A stretch of 63,319 nucleotides of DNA, the filler included, from Vermamoeba vermiformis (taxonomy: Eukaryota), in assembly GCA_045837725.1 (NCBI GenBank). It is 3 parts of 3 records of this genome, joined end to end, with 100 filler letters (N's around TTAATTAATTAA, not from the genome) between each part and the next. Parts side by side here need not be neighbours in the genome. Positions count along the whole stretch, not along the records: positions 1 to 24,527 come from JBEWZL010000046.1; 2 more parts are not named here. The stretch is one strand, 5' to 3'. Positions 17,290 to 55,520 of the stretch are shown in pieces. The notes under the pieces were generated by a model. It had not been told where the DNA came from. It worked only from the letters and a program-made list of their open reading frames with translations, and made no database searches. The stretch's first letter is position 1; each line of letters begins with the position of its first letter. The position numbers and the translations under genes are program-made.

Positions 17290-19134
17290 ATGGAAAGCGG
17301 TGAGCTTTTCGGACAGCAACATTTCGGCAGTGGAATAAATACCGATCTATTACACTACGTAAGTACAATACTCGTTATTCAGCCAACTCCATTAGTATTT
17401 AAATTATAGTATTTTAAATTCGGTGGAAATTGACAGGCAAAAAATTTCTACGCGACTGCAGTAAAGGCTTTTGCCGAAGGAGATATAGATGCTATTAATA
17501 ATGAAGAAAATATCAGTAAGTAATTATTTCGTATTCAATTACGTTAAACACAAATTTACAACCCGAATCCAGATTCGCAATAAATTTAACTCACTTGTCG
17601 CTCAATTAACCTTAGCGAATTACTAGGCGCCGACGACACGAGCACCAATCAAGGTCAAGATAGCACTGTAATTTCAATCGACTTGTCAAAGCAGCACCAA
17701 ACAATAGAGAATTTTGGCGCATCTGACGCGTGGTCGTGTCAATTCGTTGGTCACTGGCCCGATGCCAAGAGAACAGCCATGGCAGATCTGCTGTTTAGCC
17801 TGGAGACTACTTCCATAGGCCAACCTAGCGGCATCGGCCTCTCATTATGGAGGTTCAATCTTGGAGCTGGAAGTGCGCAGCAAGGCGACAACAGCGGAAT
17901 AACTGACGAGTGGCGCAGAGCCGAGTCATTCATCGGCAAGAACGACGAGTATGAATGGGACCTGCAGGTCGGTCAAATGTGGTTCTTAAAGGCTGCCAAA
18001 GATCGCGGCGTCGAGAAGTTTTTGGCATTTTGCAACAGCCCTCTCGTTAGCTTAACTAAAAATGGAAAAGCGTTTGCAACAGCAGGCCAACCGAATTTGG
18101 CAAAAGAGAACTTCGACGCGTTTGCGGATTACTTGGTGAATGTCGTGAAGGGCGTCAAGAACAAATTTGGGGTGACATTCGATTACCTTAGTCCCGCGAA
18201 TGAGCCGCAATGGGATTGGGGTGGTGGACAAGAAGGCACGCCGTTCACAAACGAAGACATTACGGGCATTGTCACCGCACTCGACGCGGCTATCACACGC
18301 GAGCAGATCGCAACTAAAATCACCATCGTGGAAGCAGGCCAATACAACTTTCTATATTCAGCGCACGGCAAGCCTCGCAGGGGCAACCAAATCGATGCGT
18401 TTTTCACGCCTGGCCCTGTGTTCATTGGAGATTTGCCCTCAGTCGAACAAGTCATCATGGGCCACGGCTATTTCACGACATCACCGTACAATGCAGCAGT
18501 TCAAGTGCGAAGAAAGCTGCATCACAAAGTAAAACAAGTGAATGGCTTGAGACTGTGGCAGTCAGAGTATTGCATTTTAGGCGATAACAATGGCGAAATC
18601 AACGGCAGTCATCGAGATCTTGGCATCAAACCTGCAATCTACCTCGCACGCGTGATTCACAACGATCTCGTCAATGCAAATGCCTCAGCGTGGCATTGGT
18701 GGACAGCGATATCAGCCTATGACTACAAAGACGGGTTGATTTACGTCGACAAGAACAAAACGGATGGCAATTTTGAAGCGAGCAAAATGTTGTGGGCCCT
18801 AGGAAACTTTAGCCGATTCATTCGCCCAGGCGCAGTGCGTGTATCGACAACGATGTCAAATCAATCTGATGTGTTGTCCTCTGCATTCGTGAACAAGACA
18901 GGCGAGTTGGTTGTTGTGCTGATTAATCCGACTTTGAAAACCAAAGAAGTGAAACTCAATTTGACTGGTGCGACATTTCAATCAGCGACTGCGTACGTCA
19001 CATCTAGCAGTACGGATCTGTATCCATTTGCGATTTCAAACTCAGCTGAGCCAATGCATTTAGAGGCCCTTAGCATCACTACAGTTGTGTCAAAATTAAC
19101 ATTGCCGAGCTCATACCGGTGTTGTTTGCTGTAA
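17290..19134 (+). CDS. Glycoside hydrolase family 30 (bacterial-type, Glyco_hydr_30_2-like); 5' start uncertain
   Basis: Uninterrupted ~490-aa exon with QTIENFGASDAW, GIGLSLWRFNLGAGS, WRRAE, acid/base NEP, nucleophile WQSEY, and WALGNFSRFIRPGAVRV. Two short upstream exons can splice in frame. Confidence 0.88.
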
Positions 19135-19505
19135 AAAAAAATAAATCTTTGATAAATGTAGATCAAACAAGAAGACCTCAACTACCGAGGCGTAAGGACT
19201 TATAATTAAGCAAGCCGAACAAGTGCTTAAACTCGCACGTGGCAGCCTGTTGACGTCAATGCTGCGTAAAAAAGAAATCTTAGTGACGTGGCGGTCTTTC
19301 TTTTTTCGCAAACAACAGTATTTATGTTTCGCCCAGCGTCATATTTATAAAAACAGGCTTACTTCCGCACATCTGGTAAGTTATTTTTGATCAAAATTTA
19401 AATTATAATTTTTGAAACGAGATATCCATTAACATTATTGCCCTTGTTGCCTGCTAATATTAATTGACGCTAATAACTTTATTTACGATTTTTTGCGCAG
19501 TGATT

Positions 19506-19744
19506 ATGGCAGCATCCGTTTTTCGAAGTTTGGTAACGAAAATGAGAGCTGTCGTGTATTATCAATATGGCAATTGGGAACAGCTCCAGCTAAAAACTGA
19601 TGTACTCAAGCCACATCCAGTCAATGATGAGGTTCTTATCCGCGTTCGCGCAGTGCCCTCAACCATTCTGACTGGGAATTTCTTACCGGATCTCCCGCTT
19701 ATGTCCGCATGTGGGGCCTCACACGACCAAGTAGACTTTTAGGG
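19506..19744 (+). pseudogene. Truncated, frameshifted MDR-family NAD(P)-dependent dehydrogenase / quinone oxidoreductase
   Basis: MRAVVYYQYG...LKPHPVNDEVLIRVRA, a frameshift near 19654, then ALNHSDWEFLTGSPAYVRMWGLTRPSRLLG. It ends abruptly in TTAGGG repeats where the GroES domain should continue. Confidence 0.8.
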
Positions 19745-19756
19745 TTAGGGTTAGGG
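19739..19756 (+). repeat. Interstitial telomeric repeat (TTAGGG)3
   Basis: ttagggttagggttaggg read directly. Confidence 0.9.
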
Positions 19757-19988
19757 CTTATGCTTCGCTTTTCAGGCCCCTGGATCTCTGACGAAATTTC
19801 ACCGAAATTTCCGGGAGTTGTTCCATGCAGCGAGGGCCGAAGGCCCGAGCGCATAGCACCAAGTCCCATTACATTTGGTGATAGTGATGCAGAGATACAG
19901 GGGCTCGAAGTAGCTGCGGCGCCAGCGTCGTAATGCCGCAATGCCGCAGGCAAATCACCGTTCCCGACACTTTTCGGTTAATTCTCTT

Positions 19989-20022
19989 TTAGGGTTAGGG
20001 TTAGGGTTAGGGTCAGGGTTAG
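19989..20022 (+). repeat. Interstitial telomeric repeat (TTAGGG)4-TCAGGG-TTAG
   Basis: Read directly. Confidence 0.9.
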
Positions 20023-20963
20023 TATACAATGGGATCTTCGGCGCTGTCCGAGGCCGCTAGGCCGAGGGCAGCGCGTCTCAAAATTTGCCCAAATATACTT
20101 CAGAGGAGGCTAATTATGCCCAAATTATGAAAAACAATGAGAAAGTCAAGGTAAATCCGAAATAATTTTGCGAAAATTTGGGTGCCGACGACAAAAACTG
20201 ATGAGAGGGCTGATGACGATGCTGATGACAGGCTTTGGTAAAAAAAGATGATCAGAATAATAAAATAATAGCTTTAATACATGTAAATATGCTGTTACAA
20301 GCTTAAAAATTGATTTTGGAAAGGATTCGGCAAAGTGCGAAAAAAATTAAAATATTCGAATTGCGCAATTGATGTGCTGCTTGTAAAAAAGGTTCAAAAT
20401 ATGAACAAAGAGAATGAAAATGACTGAAAAAGGTGACAAATTTAATAAAATAGCACATCTGCAAATTTGCAGATTTGGTTGCAGAAGGTGCAATTTAGCT
20501 GGTTTCTTTGATACCAGTTACCAGGCAGGCTGTAAGACTGCCTGCAATCAGAGGGAAATGGTATAATTGCATTGATACAATTGTATTTAAAGTGTTTGTG
20601 GAGGCTGTAATAGTTTAGAGGCAGGGATGAAGGCCCTGCCTCCCCTCAAGAAGTGCAAGCAACAGGCACTGACTGGCTCTGCAAATATTTGGCAAAAATT
20701 TAATTGAACAAGATCAAGGCAGGACGTAGTACTGCCTTTAAACAAGGGAAACAAGTGGTAGAACTGAAATAAATGAAGTTTGCAGAGAGTTGGCACTCTT
20801 TTTTAGAAACCTGTTTTGCAAGCAATGGAAATGTATGGGCAACCCTGCTGCGGACCTTCAGAATATGCTCTAATAGGTAGTAGGTGGTGGCTACTAATTA
20901 TTTCAGTTGGTATTTCAAGTTAGCAAGCGTGTTACCCATACTTCACCAATGCTGCCAATGTTA

Positions 20964-22690
20964 GGACTCAAGTTGTTTGATAAACAGCCTCCAAGCAGTA
21001 TTTTTTTTGGCAAACTGAAGTTAAAGTAGATTATTAGACATCCAATGACATCACTATAATAGTGGGTAATCTTAAATCATAGGTGAATATTCAAAATTTG
21101 CAATTCAAATGGTTTTTTTGCTGGATCTGCTAAATTTATTGACCAAACAGGCAATATAAGACATCCCTATAGTATATACTATTAGTATAGGATGTAAATA
21201 TAATAGATAAACTCAAAACATATGAAGAGGAAGCAACCCTGCACTTGGGTAATCAACTGGAGCTGAAATGCAATCGATGCAATCAAATGCAATCAAATGA
21301 AATCGAATGAAATTTTGCAATGTGCAAGACTAGGCAGCTAGGATTTTGGGCACCTAGGATTCCAGGCACCTTGTTTTACCTGTCTGGGCACCTAGAATTC
21401 CATGGGCACCTACTGGGCACCTAGGATTCCGTGAGTGGGCACCTAGAATTCCGGGCACCTAGGATTCCGTGAGTGGGCACCTAGAATTCCGTGAGTGGGC
21501 ACCTAGGATTCCGGGCACCTAGAATTCCGTGACTGGGCACCTAGGATTCCGGGCACCTAGAATTCCGTGACTGGGCACCTAGAATTCCGGGCACCTAGGA
21601 TTCTGTGGCTGGGCACCTAGGATTCCGGGCACCTAGAATTCCTGTGAGTGGGCACCTAGGATTCCGGGCACCTAGAATTCCATGGCTGGGCACCTAGGAT
21701 TCCGGGCACCTAGAATTCCGTGACTGGGCACCTAGAATTCCGGGCACCTAGAATTCCGTGACTGGGCACCTAGAATTCCAGGCACCTAGGATTCCGTGAC
21801 TGGGCACCTAGGATTCCGGGCACCTAGAATTCCTGTGAGTGGGCACCTAGAATTCCATGGCTGGGCACCTAGGATTCCGGGCACCTAAATTTCCGTGGGC
21901 ACCTAAATTTCCGTGGGCACCTAAATTTCCGTGAGTGGGCACCTAGGATTCCGGGCACCTAGGATTCCGTGACTGGGCACCTAGAATTCCGGGCACCTAG
22001 AATTCCGGGCACCTAGGATTCCAGGCACCTAGGATTCCGGGCACCTAGAATTCCGGGCTCCTAGGATTCTGTGGCTGGGCACCTAGGATTCCAGGCACCT
22101 AGGATTCTGTGTCTGGGCACCTAGAATTCCGGGCACCTAGAATTCCGGGCACCTAGGATTCTGTGGCTGGGCACCTAGGATTCCGTGGACTCAAGTTGGT
22201 GGATAAACAGCCTCCAATAAGTATTTTTTTGGCAAACTGAAGTTAAAGTATATTATCAGACATGTAGTAGCATCACTATAATCATTAGATATCTTAAATC
22301 ATAGGTACATATTCAAAACTTGCAATTCATGGAGTTTTTTTACTGGATCTGCTAAAATTTTGATGAAACATGCTATATATGATATCCCTATAGTATCTAC
22401 TATCAGTATAGGATGTAAATATAATGGCCAAACTCAAATGATACAAGAAGGATGCTAGGTGGTGCTTGTGTAGGCCACTGGAGCTGAAATGCAATCGACG
22501 CAATCGAATGCAATCAAATGAAATCGAATGAAATTTTGCATTGAGCAAGACTAGACAGCTATGAGTTTGGGCACTTTGGATTCCAGGCACCTTGTTTTAC
22601 CTGTCTGGGCACCTAGAATTCCTTGGGCACATGCTGGGCACCTAGGATTCCATAAGGAGAGGGGTACCCTGTTGGGCACCTAGGATTCCA
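20964..22690 (+). repeat. Two ~400-bp imperfect direct repeats (starting 20964 and 22187), each followed by satellite units
   Basis: The block ggactcaagtt...taaacagcctcc...caaactgaagttaaagta...aaatcgaatgaaattttgca...caccttgttttacctgtctgggcacctagaattcc is present twice. Confidence 0.9.
21348..22186 (+). repeat. Tandem satellite of the 16-bp unit GGGCACCTAG(G/A)ATTCC with optional ~6-bp spacers (GTGAGT/GTGACT/GTGGCT/ATGGCT)
   Basis: Dozens of near-identical units read directly. Confidence 0.97.
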
Positions 22691-23124
22691 TGACTGGCTG
22701 CCTACTATTTTGGACACCTAGGATTCTGAGGATCTTGAATTCCAATAGCTGAGAGAGTGGTTGGAGAGGGTACCCCTCTCCTTAGGACTTGGGTGAAAAA
22801 AGAATAAAAAATAATTGCATACAGTGGGTTTTGAACCTGCTCCAGGTAAAAAGCATTTTAAACTGCCATATTCAAAAACTTGCAATTGATGAAGCAACCT
22901 TAGTAGTTAACAGAATTGATGGCGGTTTGCTTTGTTAGGCTCCTAATATCATGTATTTTCATTGCCAATCAAAAAAGCTGGAGTTCTGGTTGAAAAGTTT
23001 TCATTCATGAAAAACTAGCTGTTACAAATCACAAAACAATTTTTTTTGTCCAAGTCATTTTGTTGTTTTTTTAAAAACACAGCACCACAAGGGAACCCTT
23101 TTTAAATTTTAAATTGATACTATA

Positions 23125-24527
23125 ATGCAAAATACTTTCAAGGCCTTTGATAAGGATCAAATGACCAGGGAGTTTACTCACTGGCACTCTTTAAATCTTA
23201 GCTGCAAGGAAGTGGACTGCCCTCTATGCTACAAAGAGCTACAGTTCAAGTCAGTGCTGCCTCATATGAAGAACAACTGCTGCTCTGGTATTCTAAGGTA
23301 CTCTCCAGCAACTAGGTACACTATCATTGAATTGTTCTCTGCTACAAATCCCAGGAATAGACCTAAGGTTCATAGCCATAGACCTACTGCTGAGGAGGAG
23401 TTAGGAGGGGAGATTACTAATGTTTTCTCATTCAAATTTGAGGGCACTAAGCTGCTCTACAAAGTAGAAGTCAGGTTCAAAGAGGTCTTTTGGATGGAGA
23501 ATGCTCTGCTCAAGAAGTCAACAGAAGGAAGAAAATGGATTCAAAGAGTCAACAGGTGGAGAAAGAGAGGAGAAATGAAGGAGTCTAAAGAACAGATTGA
23601 AGCAGCAGAAGTAATTAGAACAGACCCAATGAACATGAGAAGAATTCCAAAGCCAATGGCTCAACAGATTGATGAAGAGATTGAAGAATACCACATTCAA
23701 CAAGCTCTTGAGCAACCAGTTGAAGAAGAGAGAGTGAATAAGAAGAAAAAGAAGAAGAACCAAGTGATAAACTGGGCACTGATCAAATCAAAACTGATCA
23801 AGGCTAAGTACTGGGCTGATCTCATAAAAGAGATTGACTCAGAGTCAAATTATAATAATTCAAGGCTATTGTCATCTACTTTAGTCTCAATAATAAGTTT
23901 CTTGATGAATGACTTGAAGGCAAAGTCATTTACTAAATTGACAGACCAATACCCAACTCCTGCAAAGTTCTTTCAATCTCTTGATATTAATAAGCTGTTC
24001 TTTTTAACTTTAGTCAAAAGAAGAACAAGAAAGGGAAAGAAGATGGCTTCAACAGTTTGCTCAAACATTAGCAGTGTCCTTAAGCTACTTAAAATGGTTA
24101 AACTAAATGAAATTGGTTACATTAGGTTAAAACAGTTCAAAGCAGTTAAGAAGTTCTACCTTAATCAAAGGAAGAAAGCAAAAAAGGCAGCCAATGACTT
24201 GAAGAAATACTCAATGAGAATGTCAGTGATGATGGCTGAAGGCAAGTCCAGAAGAGAGCTTTGCAGCTATATCAGAATTCTCAAAGGAAACAATGCAAGA
24301 GATCATCAAGTCAAAAGTTCACTTCAGAAAGAATACCATGGTCACAAAAACAAGTGAGTTAATTTTGAATATAAGTAATCAACTAGAACAAATATCTAAC
24401 TTAACCACTGCTTCAATTAGAGCCACTAAAGCTTCAGAAATGTGAGCAATATCAGCTTTGTTTAATGTGGTCTGTTGGTCTTTCAATTGGCATGCCAAGA
24501 ACTAGCTTCTTTCCCAAGATGGTTCTT
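23125..24527 (+). CDS. Putative tyrosine recombinase (N-terminal Zn finger, chromo-like segment, core-binding helix, first catalytic Arg); truncated by gap
   Basis: 410-aa ORF with CPLC...H....C, a chromo-like EITNVFSFK..TKLLYKVEV...W segment, and ASTVCSNISSVLKLLK. After a frameshift or micro-intron and a GT-AG intron it reads YQLCLMWSVGLSIGMPRTSFFPKMVL, similar to YR box I. Remaining catalytic residues are not visible. Confidence 0.45.
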
Positions 24528-24626
24528 NNNNNNNNNNNNNNNNNNNNNNNNNNNNNNNNNNNNNNNNNNNNTTAATTAATTAANNNNNNNNNNNNNNNNN
24601 NNNNNNNNNNNNNNNNNNNNNNNNNN
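24528..24626. other. Assembly gap with artificial TTAATTAATTAA spacer
   Basis: N runs flanking ttaattaattaa. Confidence 0.98.
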
Positions 24627-25207
24627 NGTAACAATAAAATTACGTTTTTCAACATAGAACGACCACACTTATATCTTAAAGTTATATTTCTGTACAAAGT
24701 GGTCCCTGAATTGACGGCAATTGATGCGAAGTGCCGTAACTTTTGGTTGGTAAGCCAGATGCTGGATTTGTTTTTTCTGATCTTCGCATCACAACAAAAT
24801 TAACGACTAATTCCATCGCGATAAATCATAATATTAATAATAGAGTGCCTCGTAAGCAATTACAAGCACTTTTGAATTATTTTGAATTATTTTTTAAAAT
24901 TAACGCCTCCGATCTGTTCGGCCATTGTGCTGCAACTATTCGGGTCGTACTTTCGATTTGTAACACTCTTATTAATACAATCTTATTGATAGGTGTGCGA
25001 CTTCATATTGAGAAGATTTTGTACAGGCGATTTAGGGGACCCGGACTCTATTGTTTGAGTTTTTTCTGCCATCTTTGTAAACAAATTCCAGTAAATTTCG
25101 CACAATAGTGGTGAGTTATTATCACTTTATACATGGCTAATGATTACTCAGTTTATTTTTGATGTGTTAGATCCGAACCACACGCGACCTCGAAAAGTGC
25201 CTCGGCA

Positions 25208-40320: not shown

Positions 40321-43300
40321 TTATTTACAAACGGCGCCAGTACACAGTCGCAGCCATTGTGGCAAAGGACACGCAAAACTATTTCCAGAGATATTACACT
40401 CTGAAGGCGGATCTGTATAATCAACAGCCGAGGTGAAGTTATTATAAGCTATATTAAGGCTGAATAGGACCGTCAAAGTTGGAGCTGGCAGCACAAATTT
40501 TCCGCTAAAATTATTGAACTGCAGCTCCACCGAATCGCCTTCCCACGCACTCGGCAGCTTATCAAGGCCACCAGTCAGATTATTATACGCGAGTTTCAAT
40601 TGTTTTAGGCTCAGCGGAATTTCCGGAATTTCTCCGGAGAGCGATGTATTGTAGAACACCATAATCGAGAGTTGCGAGGCGGATGCGAAGCTCGGCAAAG
40701 TTCCTTCTAACATGTTGTGCAATATTCTTATTGTTTTAAGAGTTGCTATCGTTCCTAACTCCGGAGGCACAGGTCCCACGAGATTGCAATCAAACAGGTA
40801 TAAATTCGCCAAATTTGTCGCGTTGATCCAAGCCGGCAACGTCCACGGATCGAAGAAATTTCCACTTATGGTAACTTCTTCCAGTTCTGTCAAATTGAAG
40901 ACTTCCGTGGGAAACTGTCCTTGGAACTTATTATCGCGCAATATAAAGCTCTTCAAATGCACCAATCCTCGGAATATTTTTGGAATTGTTCCGCCTACTT
41001 CAGTTTGAGTAAGTTGTAGATCCGTCAACATCGTCAATTCTCCGAGTGATTCGGGCAATGTTCCGGTCATGTTATTCGGTTCAGTGAATTGCAATGACAC
41101 GACGCGATTGTTTGAGTCGCAGTTGACGCCTTGCCAGCTACACACTGAAACATTTGTCAGCCAATTGCCACTCGTTATCCAACTAGGCCCGCCAGTGGCA
41201 TAATAAAACTCTTCTAGTATCGTTCTTTCTCTTGCTAAGACATCGATTGGAGGACCCGGATCTGCGATCGGCACCGCGATCGGGATCTGGATCGGGATCG
41301 GCACTTCAACAGGGACAGGTGCTTCGGGGGTGAATATAGGACTAATAGGGTTGATTTGAGGTTCATTAGGGCTGTTAACTTGTTGTTGCAATGACGACCA
41401 AATGAAATACGCTCCGACAGCCACACTGACCGCTAACACCAAAATAGCTCCACCAATCATAAGCCAGCGAAATTTGTTCCGCTTCACGAACGGTTTTTTC
41501 CGCTCTTTGACTGAAAACGAATTACTCTGTGATTGCTTCTTGTATCTTTGCTGTTGTTCTTTGACGGTGAATTCTTTGTACAACATGTCCATGAGTTGCG
41601 TGACTTGACTGACACTCGATTTGAGCTCGTTAATGTCTTTGAAATTTTGTTTGATTGATTCGCTCAAGTACGGCAGCAATGATTCGTAGTCGACGTGAAG
41701 AATTCCTATTCGAAAAAAACATTAAATTTGTGGTCAGATCCAATCGATCCGACTGCATTTCTTGCAATATCAGACTTTCCAAATTTGGTAATAAAATGTG
41801 CGGATTGGTTGTCTGCTACGCCAATTTAAATGCTTCAACGTGTCAAAGTGTCAATTTCAGTCTAGGAAATGAATACATTCCAAAAATATTTTAATCGTAC
41901 CAATATGTAATAAATCGTTATTTGCGTATTAAATTTTAAAATTTGAATTAAATCTGGGTCGTACCGTTAATTAATTGGACAGCTTGCGGCACGACTTTTT
42001 CTATCTGTTGCGCGATATATCCAACGAATCTTTTCTTCGAATTATTGTTGCCTTTAACTCCGTCTTTGAACTTGTACTCGACACCATCGATTCGCAGAAG
42101 CGCTTCTCGAGGATCCACATCTGGAAAAAATAAAAAAACACAATTAACGTTAACGTGATATTGCACTAACAGTATGTGAAGCTTACTATCGCTTATATAT
42201 CTAATTTGTTCTTTCAAATTGATGTCCGATGCTTTGTAAAAGTTCAATGCTCGGAAGTTTCCGATCACTTCTGCGTTGCCGTTGTACAGCACCATGTATT
42301 GCTCGTTGTCTTCATAATTGCTATAAATATGCTAATAAATAACTTGTTTGATAATAGAGTATCATTACGTACGTCGGTGGCTCTAACTCGGCGACTGAAT
42401 CCGATCCAGAACCGAGGAAATTTAGATCGTAGGTACTGCACGAAGTTAGCGATGCAAAAACTTAATATTTGAACTTACGTCATAGGCACTATCATGCTAT
42501 CATCAGAGTCTATATGTTCGGCACTATAAGGGCTTCGTTCGTTCGCAGTGCTAAGGTTTTGGTTGGATGGCGAGTCGTCGCCGTGTGGATCTAACGAAAC
42601 AAAGGATCTTTGGGCATATAACTCTTCATATTGTAGAGGCTCGTTTGTATTGGATTCAGCAATTAATAATTCAGGCGTGGATGTCCAAGCAACGGGGATA
42701 ATCGGAACTGATTTTATGAATTTGTTAGAACGTTTATTAGCTAATAAATGACAGAGTTGAATAGGCTATTAATATGACATATGAAAGCTTATAGATTCGT
42801 AGCGGATCTATTATTTGAAATTTTTTATTTTCGAAATCTGTCGTTAATCTTACCGTCGTCGACTTCGCTTTCTTTCTCACTAGCGTATCTTTTTTTGGCT
42901 AATAATTGAACCAATCCGGATGTGCCTTGGTTCAGCAACCTCCCGCCATTGAAACATTTTACTTCGAATCTGATCAACCGCTCTTTGATACTCCGAAAAT
43001 CAAATAATCCAGCGTTGACTTTAATTTGTATCACGAGGCCTTCTATTATTTTAGTATTTGCATTGGTTTGTAGTTTATAAGGCAATCTTTTTGCCCAAAT
43101 TAACGCTCGATTAATTTTTATCTCTTTAGATCCTTCACAATTAATAAGTTCCACTTGGTATTGCCATGCTTCGTTAGTATTGTCTTTCGAAAGGGTTACT
43201 CCGAGTGTCGGATTTGACGTTTGGTCGACATGGAAATGATTATCATCCTCCCCGCTGACAGGAATAAATAACTTGAAGTTGGTTAGCACATATATTTGTT

Positions 43301-49856: not shown

Positions 49857-52472
49857 GATCAGCTGCAGTTTTTATTCGACACATCAATTCGTCACCATTC
49901 AACTCGTTTTGGTGTCGGACAACTTCCTGAAGGCATCGAAGCAACGGTGAAGCTGATTGGTGGTCATTCGTCCCCGCTCATGGCAGGATTTGTCCTCAAC
50001 CCGTCATTTTCTCCGCTCAACATCAAGCCTGTCTTGCTCACTATGCTTATCAAGAATGGATTCGAAGAGAGCTCGCGAGAATTTGTTCTGAAAGCGTTGG
50101 ATCCGCTCTTTAGTGCTGCAGCGAAAAATCAAGAAGTTCGAACTTGCGCGGCGTTTCGCAATGAAAATGATATCCAACTCACTGTAATCTCGGCCTCAGA
50201 TTCGGCTATCGCTTCAATTCTCACTTCCGCCAACTTGGATCCGCTTCGCAACCAGTTTCAGCTTGCTACAGAGCTCTGTGGTAACATCAGTGTGGAGTCT
50301 CACCAGCAGATCTTGGCAACAGGTCTCGCCCTTGATACGAAGAAAGAACTAGATGCCGGATACATCCTTCACCCTGCTTGTTTTATTGCCGCGAAACATG
50401 AGTCGAACACGTCCTTGCTGCCATCGTCCCTCTCAGAGCCACCAACAACGGAGTTATTTACGCTGGTCATAGACCCTTATACGAAGGAGGCTACAGCTAT
50501 TCGATTTGCTCAGAGTGCCCCGGGTCGTTCACCACATCAATACAAAGCAGGCACGCCTAGTCAAGTTGTGACGACTGAAGGAACCCTTGAAGTGCCCTTA
50601 CTCCACATTGTGCGCAAACTTTCAGGCTCCGGAGGAACCGACCTTGAAATAGCCATACCGAAGCTCTTCGGCCTATTGGAACGATTGCGCTCGTGGCAAC
50701 GAAGTGTTCTTCTATTCAACCGTTTGTTTGACCATGGCGAGCAATTGACTGAAGAAGAACAGTACTTTGTCGAGACGTTTGTCGAGAATTTGAACAATGT
50801 TGGATATCCTCAACGAGCCAAAGACAAGCGCGTGAACATTGACGGCTTGAACGAGTTCATTCAGACGATTGAATGGGCCATGCGCGAGATCATTGAACCT
50901 GCACGTGCCTCACTCGCAACAGCACACCAAGTCACTTACAAAGGCTTAATGGAAGCGTTCCCGATTGGCTCAATTGTCGTTGGACAAGCTGCTGGTCTTG
51001 GCGGGGCTCTGGTGGCATATCGTGTCTTCGATTGCTACATGAGCACGCAGCGTTCAATGTTCGGCACGAGCAAGTACATCTTCACTCTTGGCCTCGAGTT
51101 TGTGGTCAACTTGGGCGCTCATTTCTGCGTGTGCAACTTTGAAGACAAGATTGAAGAGTTTGAAGGCGAACGTGACTTGGCGAGTCTGCCTTACGTGCCC
51201 TTGACCTCACGTGCTAATGAACGATCAATGTTGGTTTCTCGTGGCAAAGCTGTGGCCGAGCTTGGCGTCAAACCAGTGTACCGATCGTACGCTTCTGGTG
51301 CTTTTTTCGCTCATCTTGCAGGCAGCTCTAGCGGCGCAGCAGCTACTACTGGCGTGCATCAAGCAGGCTCTGGACGATGTATGGTCGATAACGAACGAGG
51401 TCTGTTGCTCGGACACGCCCCTGGCGTTTCATACGATGGTGCAGGCATTGCCATTCAATCTACGATTAAAGTCTATCGTGTCGCTGTTCGTGCATCACAT
51501 GAAAACGAATCTGAAGCTGCCAAACAAGAACGCATTAAGAACGCACGACTGCGATTGTTCAAACACTTGCCAAGCCACTTTGAAGTCATAACTTGGCCCG
51601 CTGTCGTGGCCTACAGCTTCACATGGAAGACTTGGGGTCACGTGCTCACGAGCGGTCTCAGCGAAGTTCAATTCAGCGACGAGCCGTGGAACCAACTCGT
51701 GCTTCCGAAACGAACCAAAGAACTTCTGTTTGCGTCAGCTCTCTTCAATCTGAGCGGAGCTCCTGGCGTCGGTGATTTGATCAAAGGCAAATCTCAAGGC
51801 GCTTTGTATCTCTTGTACGGACCACCAGGCACCGGAAAAACTCTTACAGGTACGGATCCAAATTTCAATTTTATCAGGCAGGGGTCTTATAGATTATTTG
51901 CAGTTGAAGCTATTTCCGAGAAGTTTAAATTGCCACTTTACACGGTGTCTCTTGGTGAACTCGGTACTGGTGCGCAAGAAGTTGATGCAGCGATCAACAA
52001 CATCCTGGCACTTTGTGCACAATGGAAAGCAATCGTGCTGCTCGATGAAGGTGACGCATTGTTGGAACAACGAGAGAAAGGCAAGCTGCAAATGAACTCC
52101 TTGACTGGCGTGTTGCTGCGATCGTTGGAGAACTTCGACGGACAGCTGTTTATCACCTCGAACAGACTTCAACACATTGACCGTGCTGTGCTGTCACGGG
52201 TCACTTTAGCTATCAAATACGATGAATTAGACGCAGCTGCACGTGCTTGCATTTGGCGCAACACGCTCACTCGTGCAGGAGTCGATTTATCAAATTTAGA
52301 TATCGATGCATTGGCTCAGTACGAGATCAGTGGCCGAGAGCTGTTGCATATTGTCAAGCTCGGATTGGCACTGGCATTCTATCACAAGTCCCCATTGACG
52401 CAAGAGCTCATCGTTGCTGCGTTAGAAGAGAGTCTCGAATTCAGATCTCACTTTCCAACGACGAGTTATTAA
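49857..52472 (+). CDS. AAA+ ATPase with long N-terminal region; start uncertain
   Basis: DLIKGK.QG...LLYGPPGTGKTLT (Walker A), LLDEGD (Walker B), FITSNR, AVLSRV. In-frame 54-nt intron at about 51850-51903. Confidence 0.88.
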   Translation, partial: DQLQFLFDTSIRHHSTRFGVGQLPEGIEATVKLIGGHSSPLMAGFVLNPSFSPLNIKPVLLTMLIKNGFEESSREFVLKALDPLFSAAAKNQEVRTCAAFRNENDIQLTVISASDSAIASILTSANLDPLRNQFQLATELCGNISVESHQQILATGLALDTKKELDAGYILHPACFIAAKHESNTSLLPSSLSEPPTTELFTLVIDPYTKEATAIRFAQSAPGRSPHQYKAGTPSQVVTTEGTLEVPLLHIVRKLSGSGGTDLEIAIPKLFGLLERLRSWQRSVLLFNRLFDHGEQLTEEEQYFVETFVENLNNVGYPQRAKDKRVNIDGLNEFIQTIEWAMREIIEPARASLATAHQVTYKGLMEAFPIGSIVVGQAAGLGGALVAYRVFDCYMSTQRSMFGTSKYIFTLGLEFVVNLGAHFCVCNFEDKIEEFEGERDLASLPYVPLTSRANERSMLVSRGKAVAELGVKPVYRSYASGAFFAHLAGSSSGAAATTGVHQAGSGRCMVDNERGLLLGHAPGVSYDGAGIAIQSTIKVYRVAVRASHENESEAAKQERIKNARLRLFKHLPSHFEVITWPAVVAYSFTWKTWGHVLTSGLSEVQFSDEPWNQLVLPKRTKELLFASALFNLSGAPGVGDLIKGKSQGALYLLYGPPGTGKTLTGTDPNFNFIRQGSYRLFAVEAISEKFKLPLYTVSLGELGTGAQEVDAAINNILALCAQWKAIVLLDEGDALLEQREKGKLQMNSLTGVLLRSLENFDGQLFITSNRLQHIDRAVLSRVTLAIKYDELDAAARACIWRNTLTRAGVDLSNLDIDALAQYEISGRELLHIVKLGLALAFYHKSPLTQELIVAALEESLEFRSHFPTTSY

Positions 52473-55420: not shown

Positions 55421-55520
55421 NNNNNNNNNNNNNNNNNNNNNNNNNNNNNNNNNNNNNNNNNNNNTTAATTAATTAANNNNNNNNNNNNNNNNNNNNNNNN
55501 NNNNNNNNNNNNNNNNNNNN
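55421..55520. other. Assembly gap with artificial TTAATTAATTAA spacer
   Basis: N runs flanking ttaattaattaa. Confidence 0.98.

Follow-up and report, generated by a model that had tools for sequence, protein, structure and literature searches.

Why does an oxidoreductase gene of the amoeba Vermamoeba vermiformis run straight into telomere repeats, and what is the DNA that follows them? The locus that raises this question occupies positions 19506 to 24527 of a 63,319-nucleotide (nt) stretch of the genome assembly, which we call the window. It comprises the 5' part of the oxidoreductase gene, two short TTAGGG tracts with a 232-nt piece between them, and about 4.5 kb of repeat-rich distal DNA past the tracts that ends in a 410-amino-acid (aa) open reading frame (ORF) at the contig end. 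An earlier, sequence-only reading had listed these features, and the tracts, the 232-bp piece, the satellite, and the ORF were all present where it had placed them. It had offered two explanations, a tyrosine recombinase element that uses TTAGGG as its recombination core and a chromosome break healed by telomerase and later extended by subtelomeric DNA. The answer that we favor, with a probability of roughly 0.55, is a terminal truncation that was repaired with subtelomeric modules bounded by telomere tracts.

In this answer, a chromosome break would have removed one copy of the oxidoreductase gene beyond codon ~78, the broken end would have acquired a short, outward-pointing telomere-repeat tract, and repeated telomere-associated modules would have become stacked beyond the break (19739 to 24527 and onward), with TTAGGG tracts at the first two junctions. 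The order of the stack would be a 232-nt palindromic module, a module that we call M1, ~470-nt units with a satellite, and a decayed recombinase-like gene. Two routes, both belonging to one kind of event, could have led to this arrangement. In one, telomerase would have healed the break, and the short tract that it made would then have recombined with tracts lying internally at other chromosome ends; in the other, the 4-nt match ACTT would have been the starting point for copying directly from another chromosome end. The recombinase-like gene would have been a passenger in the event and not its agent; we infer both this role and the repair route. End repair is favored because the tracts point outward, an intact copy of the gene exists, the distal DNA is found beside several flanks, its depth peaks proximally, and it contains no other enzyme gene.

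The setting of the locus limits what the window can say about it. Two identical 100-nt linkers (44 N, TTAATTAATTAA, 44 N) were found at 24528 to 24627 and at 55421 to 55520, the middle of each being a 12-nt six-frame stop word, and the window therefore consists of three joined contigs. The supposed gap after 24527, which was to be closed with long reads, is thus an artificial linker with a twin and not a sized sequencing gap. The window does not fix the order or adjacency of the three contigs, so that sequence past 24628 need not be adjacent to the locus, which sits at the right end of contig 1 (contig end at 24527).

The oxidoreductase gene is broken at codon ~78

The gene remnant (19506 to 19738, + strand) retains about 78 of the ~339 codons of an MDR/quinone oxidoreductase gene. 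Its first 49 codons matched the N terminus of quinone oxidoreductase 1yb5_A in a PDB sequence search (E value of 0.0066), which upholds the earlier identification of a dehydrogenase, but two frames are needed to read it, with a shift to another frame after ~19653. A word-based search with the N terminus of the remnant led to two longer proteins, both carrying the Pfam domains ADH_N and ADH_zinc_N: P0040 (236 aa, ending with its 977-nt contig), which was 100% identical to the remnant over the aligned part, and P0041 (339 aa), which was 72% identical. The second frame of the remnant was identical to P0040 at 28 of 29 positions and to P0041 at 25 of 27. Where the frame breaks, P0040 reads Ala-Val-Ala-Leu-Asn, and a contig from the public run X1, described below, has one extra T behind 19653; the window copy is therefore short of one base near 19653, through a genuine mutation or else through a homopolymer error.

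After Arg-Leu, P0040 continues with Ile-Leu-Gly-Thr-Asp, whereas in the window the TTAGGG units come straight after the Leu codon CTT (19736 to 19738). The native sequence therefore ends at CTT, position 19738, and the TTA GGG that follows consists of added letters and not codons. The sequence-only reading had described the codons CTT TTA GGG as running into (TTAGGG)3; the tract does have three units, but TTA GGG is the first of them and not an extra one. Its proposal that the truncation took place at a TTAGGG microhomology fails on the same comparison, because P0040 reads Arg-Leu-Ile-Leu-Gly at this point and TTA GGG is not native. That a host gene was truncated was confirmed, since P0040 continues past the break, as does P0041; a truncated gene at the junction together with counterparts that extend beyond it is what chromosome healing would be expected to leave. 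The remainder of the gene, which had been suggested to lie after another TTAGGG, was sought in the window, and no ADH domain was detected by Pfam in 74 of its 111 stop-free frames of at least 90 aa, the other 37 being overlapping, antisense, or already scanned.

Directly upstream of this bacterial-type oxidoreductase remnant is an intronless bacterial-type GH30 glycoside hydrolase frame (17590 to 19131, + strand; 483 to 514 aa; Glyco_hydr_30_2, Pfam E value of 9.9e-149). The two may represent a horizontally acquired gene pair near a chromosome end.

Two outward-pointing telomere tracts bracket a high-copy module

Tract 1, (TTAGGG)3, lies at 19739 to 19756 (+ strand, 18 nt) and is joined directly to the break with its G strand outward. 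Tract 2, (TTAGGG)4 followed by TCAGGG and TTAG, lies at 19989 to 20022 (+ strand, 34 nt) in the same orientation, and the G strands of both run away from 19.7 kb of ordinary host genes. The 12-mer TTAGGGTTAGGG (at most 1 mismatch) occurred 6 times in the window, always at these tracts and always on the + strand; the mean for shuffled sequence was 0.05, and none of 100 shuffles reached 6. TTAGGG is presumably the telomere repeat of the host, and the site presumably lies near a chromosome end.

The 232-nt module between the tracts (19757 to 19988) is an imperfect long palindrome, with RNA fold z values of -4.49 for the + strand and -4.21 for the - strand. No other copy of it was found elsewhere in the window, where blastn and tblastn also detected no further copies of the rest of the distal DNA, and GTDB genome contigs contained no copies by protein or by a 31-nt exact pattern. 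Only chance-level sequence matches linked the module to the rest of the distal DNA, and neither tract is surrounded by symmetric (inverted) arms of the recombinase type. GC-rich hairpins are present at the starts of both this module and M1.

We compared the locus with the assembled contigs of four public runs, which can show presence and not absence, among them X1 (organism A), X5 (organism B), and X3 (an aquifer metagenome). The k-mer depth of the host flank in X1 was 420, 556, 0, 440, 579, and 401 in six bins from 18500 to 19705, and rose to 9055 at the 232-nt module, ~19 times that of the host flank. A 289-nt X1 contig over 19450 to 19737 stops exactly at the junction, as would be expected if two continuations branched there; X1 contigs of this interval differ from the window at 5 positions and by one inserted base, and in two further X1 records the letters ahead of 19745 are different ones. 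A 251-nt contig from X3 begins with 47 unrelated letters and then matches 19735 to 19938 with 0 differences over 204 nt, so that a different flank is followed by the identical ACTT, exactly three repeats, and the 232-nt module. In X5 the module was found in three records, two at ~90 to 93% identity and one with an identical stretch. The ACTT and the exactly three repeats shared with the X3 flank favor the copying of an existing unit, or tract recombination, over fresh synthesis by telomerase. The break, the tract, and the subtelomeric DNA make the second of the earlier explanations the one that fits more of the evidence, but its step of new telomerase synthesis is the part that the X3 flank speaks against.

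The same contigs bear on whether the junction is real. If unrelated reads had been joined through telomere or other repeats, the gene and the distal DNA would not be neighbors at all, and the position of the locus at a contig end in a repeat-rich region, the lack of a listed public contig bridging 19737 to 19745 on the flank of the window, and the absence of the window's allele of 19450 to 19737 from the X1 contigs are all compatible with such a chimera. We consider it quite improbable, however, given that tracts of 18 and 34 nt are too short to mislead long-read or paired assemblies, that the X1 flank contig stops where a real branch would stop it, and that the tract-module arrangement is exact in the independent metagenome X3; moreover, because minor variants are lost from Logan contigs, the absence of the allele carries no weight.

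The addition of short telomere tracts at internal break sites has reportedly been described, and the locus could likewise be an internal repair scar, made of telomerase-added repeats and captured filler DNA, or the insertion of a repeat block, with the rest of the gene located beyond the contig end. The shortness of the two tracts, the continuation of public contigs past 24527, and the occurrence of ACTT at another flank would suit such an event. It is made improbable by the outward orientation of both tracts, by the presence of the tract-plus-module unit at other flanks and its ~19-fold depth, and by the absence of the second half of the gene from the window.

The distal DNA is built from repeated modules

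Beyond tract 2 the distal DNA begins with M1 (20023 to 20963, + strand), a non-coding module of ~940 nt with a purine-rich + strand that occurs once within the window. It is followed by copy 1 of a ~470-nt unit (20964 to 21435, + strand), which is 84 to 91% identical to copy 2 (direct repeat families D3 to D5), and by a satellite (~21340 to 22186) with 16- and 22-nt units, a 38-nt period, and a GGGCACCTAGRATTCC core, identified by Tandem Repeats Finder and by repeat families D1 and D2. Copy 2 of the unit (22187 to 22656, + strand), with a short satellite remnant after it, precedes the region upstream of the recombinase-like gene (22657 to 23124, + strand), which includes a high-depth stretch at 22721 to 22921. 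The GC content of the unique parts was 0.33 to 0.39, compared with 0.42 for the host flank, and these values lie within the window's own range of 0.30 to 0.50; the earlier description of this DNA as foreign in composition is weak. The + strand was purine rich (0.58 to 0.59), with purine shares of 0.578 in M1 and 0.589 in the recombinase-like gene versus 0.517 in the host.

Several smaller features were noted in these repeats. Satellite with the GGGCACCTAGRATTCC core is also present at 22560 to 22740, and its units contain the palindromes CCTAGG and GAATTC. M1 contains three small GGCAGG...CCTGCC hairpins, ~100 nt apart, at 20520 to 20740. The stretch at 22721 to 22921 reached ~40 times the k-mer depth of the host flank in X1 (18,977) and includes an inverted GAGAGGGGTACCC motif that is frequent in loose ends; it looks like a separate small repeat family.

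The X1 k-mer depth along M1 fell with distance from the tract, from 5683 through 3918, 3228, and 2053 to 734 in bins across 19907 to 20911, and was 417 to 946 over the ORF, ~1.5 times that of the host flank. This fall from the tract outward indicates that copies are anchored at the proximal tract and lost distally. The satellite reached depths of up to 165,920 in X1, 376 in X3, and 4758 in X5, three unrelated runs. In organism B (X5) the distal DNA was ~91% identical to that of the window, and nothing over 18701 to 19705, in the host flank, was present among the X5 contigs. One X5 contig of 1458 nt spans M1 and the first unit, from 6 letters ahead of 20028 to 21477, with 129 differences, and another of 1998 nt carries the recombinase-like gene with 130 differences and has 24246 to 24418 replaced by 175 other letters. 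M1, the unit, and the satellite are contiguous in X5, and the joint between M1 and the unit also occurs in X3, where one contig joins 20793 directly to 22192 and so has one unit-plus-satellite fewer. The gene-bearing part occurs in other contexts too, as loose ends at 23004 in X3 and at 23055 in X1 reveal, and public contigs run past the contig end of the window by 323 letters in X5 and 144 in X3. The contigs of X1, X3, and X5 and the k-mer depth thus show the distal DNA to be repeated and to have other flanks. In the RNA run X20, ~46% of which was read, 8 reads matched, nearly all of them on the satellite; neither the GH30 gene nor the gene remnant had any.

A gradient of this kind would also be produced by telomere-targeted retroelements of the Athena, Coprina, or MoTeR type, in which RNA annealed to the G overhang is copied, 5' truncated, and recapped by telomerase. 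Short tracts between successive modules, a depth that drops from the proximal tract as it would for 5'-truncated copies with a common 3' end, and the GC-rich hairpins at both module starts all resemble the products of such elements. Yet neither strand of 19757 to 24527 contains a reverse transcriptase-like ORF, nor any ORF of more than 89 aa besides the recombinase-like gene; in 19757 to 23124 in particular, no reverse transcriptase or other enzyme ORF was found. No Rfam family, including the hammerhead, was detected in 19000 to 24527 at E values up to 1, the sole gene points outward, opposite to the expected strand, with M1 on the same purine-rich strand, and the X5 depth along M1 was flat at 43.3. 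Taken together, these results make a retroelement origin very improbable.

The distal DNA carries a gene of a new recombinase-like family

The ORF at 23125 to 24357 (+ strand, 410 aa) forms the 5' part of an intron-bearing gene. Its first exon (23125 to 24353, + strand) is predicted to encode a C2HC zinc finger (residues 32 to 53), a chromo-like region (residues ~87 to 150), and a helical N-terminal domain of the recombinase type (residues ~223 to 355). The ORF had no Pfam match even at an E value of 10 and no usable match in the protein atlas. An exhaustive HMMER search of 1.84 billion representatives returned 17 relatives at E values up to 0.001, of which P0002 was 83% identical, one fragment was 63% identical, and the others were 25 to 34% identical over the N-terminal 150 residues. 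In the alignment of these relatives, the pattern Cys-x2-Cys...His...Cys is nearly invariant, and a conserved block closes with a basic motif. Three of the 17 carry an additional Pfam Chromo domain further on; the window ORF has no Pfam Chromo match.

An AlphaFold2 model of the ORF had a mean predicted local distance difference test (pLDDT) score of 75.1, with values of 93 to 98 over residues 10 to 150. Residues 87 to 150 (pLDDT of 93 to 96) aligned to the Chp2 chromoshadow domain in a comparison with 48,161 chains (Z of 7.1, root mean square deviation of 2.5, 60/66) and also matched the Oxpecker chromodomain (Z of 7.1, 56/61), Chp1, HP1, and CHD4. Foldseek gave MPP8 chromodomains at probabilities of 0.82 to 0.90, and nothing at E values up to 0.001 for the model of the whole ORF. 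By these matches the region appears to be a chromo-type domain, a fold in which ~55 to 60 residues form a three-stranded sheet packed against a helix. In 6 of the best 50 matches, residues ~223 to 355 were paired with the N-terminal domain of a recombinase or of a protein with a recombinase fold, with Z values, which for helical domains are not decisive under ~13, of 7.0 for Ndc10 (which we take to have a recombinase-like fold), 6.4 for the pi2 integrase, 6.3 for both the Brujita integrase and XerH, and 6.0 for both an archaeal Xer and SroF (assumed here to be a member of the recombinase family). A helical domain of the recombinase type is the reading suggested for this region because these matches recur and because it sits directly before the catalytic part.

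The catalytic part was best seen in the relatives, which are encoded in six metagenome loci. In L001 and L002 the gene continues across ~38-nt introns with GTAAGT/GTAATG donors (2633 to 2670 in L001 and 2738 to 2775 in L002) into a frame with the conserved blocks Trp-Pro-Arg, Ile-Lys-Asn, Arg-Leu-Leu-Arg-Leu-Asn, Met-Asp/Asn-His, and Tyr-Arg-(Val/Leu/Ile)-Trp. The short introns of the relatives sit at different positions in different members. In alignment A3 of nine sequences, K96, R171-x-x-R174, and H201 were invariant, and the Tyr of the YR(V/L/I)W motif was present in all eight of the sequences that reach that point. By our reading of the motifs, these blocks agree in order and spacing with the residues R, K, HxxR, H, and Y of tyrosine recombinases. 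The catalytic residues that had been proposed as a check, H-x-x-R and Tyr, are therefore only partly as expected: the relatives have the Tyr together with RxxR, His, and Lys, but in all nine aligned relatives the HxxR box opens with Arg in place of the usual His.

The window itself holds the very start of this catalytic domain. A 67-nt GT-AG intron at 24354 to 24420 (+ strand) is the likely splice, being one of seven stop-free GT-AG solutions and the only one with a consensus GTGAGT donor, and the start of exon 2 (24421 to 24527, + strand) is cut by the contig end. In the stop-free 41-aa stretch at 24405 to 24527, Pro-Arg-Thr lined up with Trp-Pro-Arg in L002 (E value of 8e-4) and P0027 (E value of 5e-4), colinearly with the remainder of the protein, and its Arg would correspond to the catalytic Arg of box I. 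A tblastn comparison with P0002 and P0003 showed that the window copy passes from frame 1 to frame 2 near 24239 to 24267. This copy is therefore probably a pseudogene, to judge from the reading frame, and as a frameshifted copy it is unlikely to have acted here recently.

Profile methods did not place the catalytic domain in any curated family. The C-terminal frames of L002 and L001 had no Pfam family at E values up to 1, with both PF00589 and the Crypton family DUF3504 unmatched; phmmer and hmmsearch against the PDB gave 0 matches at E values up to 10; hhalign to Cre and lambda Int gave probabilities of 0.1 to 0.3%; and a search with the A3 profile brought up 12 close members of the family and nothing else, all of them lacking Pfam domains. 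AlphaFold2 with nine sequences modeled the domain at a pLDDT of 45.7. When the domain was looked up by language-model features, Phage_integrase was present in 18 of the 30 named clusters nearest to it (top score of 0.95). Judged by the motifs of the relatives, this look-up, the exon 2 alignment, and the fold matches, the ORF that had been called YR-like can be assigned to a recombinase-like family, and the evidence supports a new family whose catalytic function is putative. As a separate observation, 2 of the 30 nearest clusters of L002 2727 to 3458 were protelomerases (telomere resolvases of the ResT/TelK family; score of 0.93), a curious result beside the telomere-tract setting but only a lead.

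Is the recombinase-like gene an agent or a passenger?

A tyrosine recombinase-like gene beside telomere repeats invites the alternative that the distal DNA is a Crypton-like DNA element, in which the recombinase would recombine a circular form with a telomere array and use the 6-nt repeat as the crossover site. Telomerase would first have healed the break, and elements would have entered the new array later, with the 232-nt module as their small non-autonomous relative. Cryptons are described by Kojima and Jurka 2011 (PMC3212892) as lacking terminal inverted repeats and as having terminal direct repeats of 4 to 6 bp that are taken to be the recombination substrate. The locus is like Cryptons in having a stand-alone, intron-bearing tyrosine recombinase-like gene with extra DNA- and chromatin-binding domains, no reverse transcriptase ORF nearby, and no terminal inverted repeats; a 6-nt repeat at the edge of the element could be a crossover site. 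The 232-nt module is bracketed by TTAGGG tracts of the same orientation, in two organisms the left edge of M1 lies beside a tract and at the same position, the gene is purine rich on the same strand as M1, and M1, the unit, and the satellite travel together in X5, as do M1 and the unit in X3. Upstream of the gene, the window has no reverse transcriptase ORF, and the corresponding stretches of L001 and L002 contained short frames only, with no such ORF.

Other observations count against a Crypton-like element. Only the left edge, at tract 2, is visible, and a right end was never seen; there are no inverted arms at either tract; and the ends of the 232-nt module and M1 have no sequence in common. 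The six metagenome loci of the relatives (1.0 to 4.0 kb each) contained no run of two or more telomere repeats, and the ORF-bearing part occurs in other upstream contexts (23004 and 23055). The window copy is frameshifted, Arg stands at the first HxxR position in all nine relatives, and catalysis is putative. The protein also differs from Crypton recombinases in its lack of a Phage_integrase or DUF3504 match at E values up to 1; it is closest in kind to them, on the motif and domain evidence, yet fails their sequence-profile test. A zinc finger plus chromo-like N terminus was not found described for Cryptons in our literature search. Overall, we regard an element of this kind as unlikely, if worth serious thought. 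The more specific proposal of an element family that lives in telomere arrays, with a Crypton-like recombinase guided by its zinc finger and chromo-type domains and with the 232-nt module as a rider, is slightly more doubtful still.

Chromovirus integrases bear chromodomains, and the family described here is like them in having a chromo-type domain attached to a DNA-integrating enzyme; the enzyme here is recombinase-like, however, and not a DDE integrase, and the domain is N terminal. By analogy, the chromo-type domain suggests tethering at heterochromatin such as subtelomeres.

The reading that we favor, terminal truncation repaired with subtelomeric modules, has points against it as well. 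Among the reads and public contigs listed, none bridges the junction between host DNA and tract. The first tract is not terminal, since at least 4.77 kb follow it, and a long terminal array of TTAGGG is not in view, because the contig ends at 24527 and public contigs continue past that point. The left edge of M1 lies beside a tract at the same place in X5, at ~91% identity and with the host flank not among the X5 contigs, and a shared edge of this kind is more what would be expected of a mobile element whose end is defined than of passive subtelomeric DNA. Ordinary subtelomeres usually share more toward the end, and here the depth falls in that direction.

Other features of the window

The genes of the window are eukaryotic and include split kinase, UCH, ankyrin, Branch, and TLC exons, an F-box-like frame, and a piggyBac-type transposase remnant; ARAGORN found no tRNA. 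On the + strand of contig 2 (25163 to 28026 in all), exons for a ubiquitin C-terminal hydrolase (UCH; E values of 1e-15 and 9e-18) precede a 403-aa frame that has a piggyBac-type DDE_Tnp_1_7 domain (E value of 3.8e-11) and may be a transposase-derived fusion or a neighboring remnant. An intronless frame of 841 to 871 aa (49857 to 52469, + strand) contains a DUF7025 and an AAA ATPase domain (E values of 1e-7 and 1e-11). A frame with a Peptidase_S74 (endosialidase chaperone) domain adjoins a leucine-rich-repeat protein frame (41951 to 42331 and 40324 to 41721, both on the - strand).

Comparison with known telomere-associated systems and significance

Blocks separated by internal telomere tracts are known from the X/Y' ends of yeast and from human subtelomeres. 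The locus resembles these in its truncated gene on an outward tract, its modules split by short internal tracts, the occurrence of those modules on several flanks, and the presence of a gene for a DNA enzyme in one of them. It differs from them in that the enzyme is recombinase-like and not a helicase, that copy number falls toward the presumed end, that the terminal position is presumed, and that the same module edge is found in a second organism.

Other systems share single features with the locus. Telomere-bearing elements of ciliates carry telomere repeats at their ends. The ciliate Tec elements (Tec1/Tec2), which PMC3212892 mentions, resemble the locus in being mobile DNA that encodes a tyrosine recombinase. 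The DDE transposase, the inverted ends, and the ciliate repeat types of Tec and telomere-bearing elements were not seen here. Athena in bdelloid rotifers (PMC7943196 and PMC3846280) and MoTeR in Magnaporthe (10.1101/845669) are similar in placing repeated elements beside or between telomere tracts and in forming a gradient of truncated copies at chromosome ends. They are unlike the locus, in which there is no reverse transcriptase and no ribozyme, the gene is on the opposite strand, and the repeat is TTAGGG; the bdelloid repeat is given as TGTGGG in PMC7943196, and no run of that repeat was found anywhere in the window. A bdelloid origin of the DNA, which its intronless genes of bacterial type had brought to mind, is set aside on this ground.

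The event itself would be an ordinary one, because end repair is known to leave truncated genes with telomere caps, and stacks of subtelomeric modules as well. What is new is a recombinase-like family with a C2HC finger and a predicted chromo-type domain, without a match to any curated family and with 17 relatives, and its setting: the recombinase-like gene is part of a module that, in two organisms, has its edge on a telomere tract. No telomere-targeting recombinase transposon was found in full-text literature searches. If the enzyme does act on telomere repeats, this would be the first DNA-level, recombinase-driven, telomere-specific mobile element found in our literature search, and it would provide a direct handle on the exchange of material between subtelomeres. 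A family of elements living in telomere arrays would stand beside the telomere-specific retroelements as their counterpart among DNA transposons, and two organisms would share it at ~91% identity.

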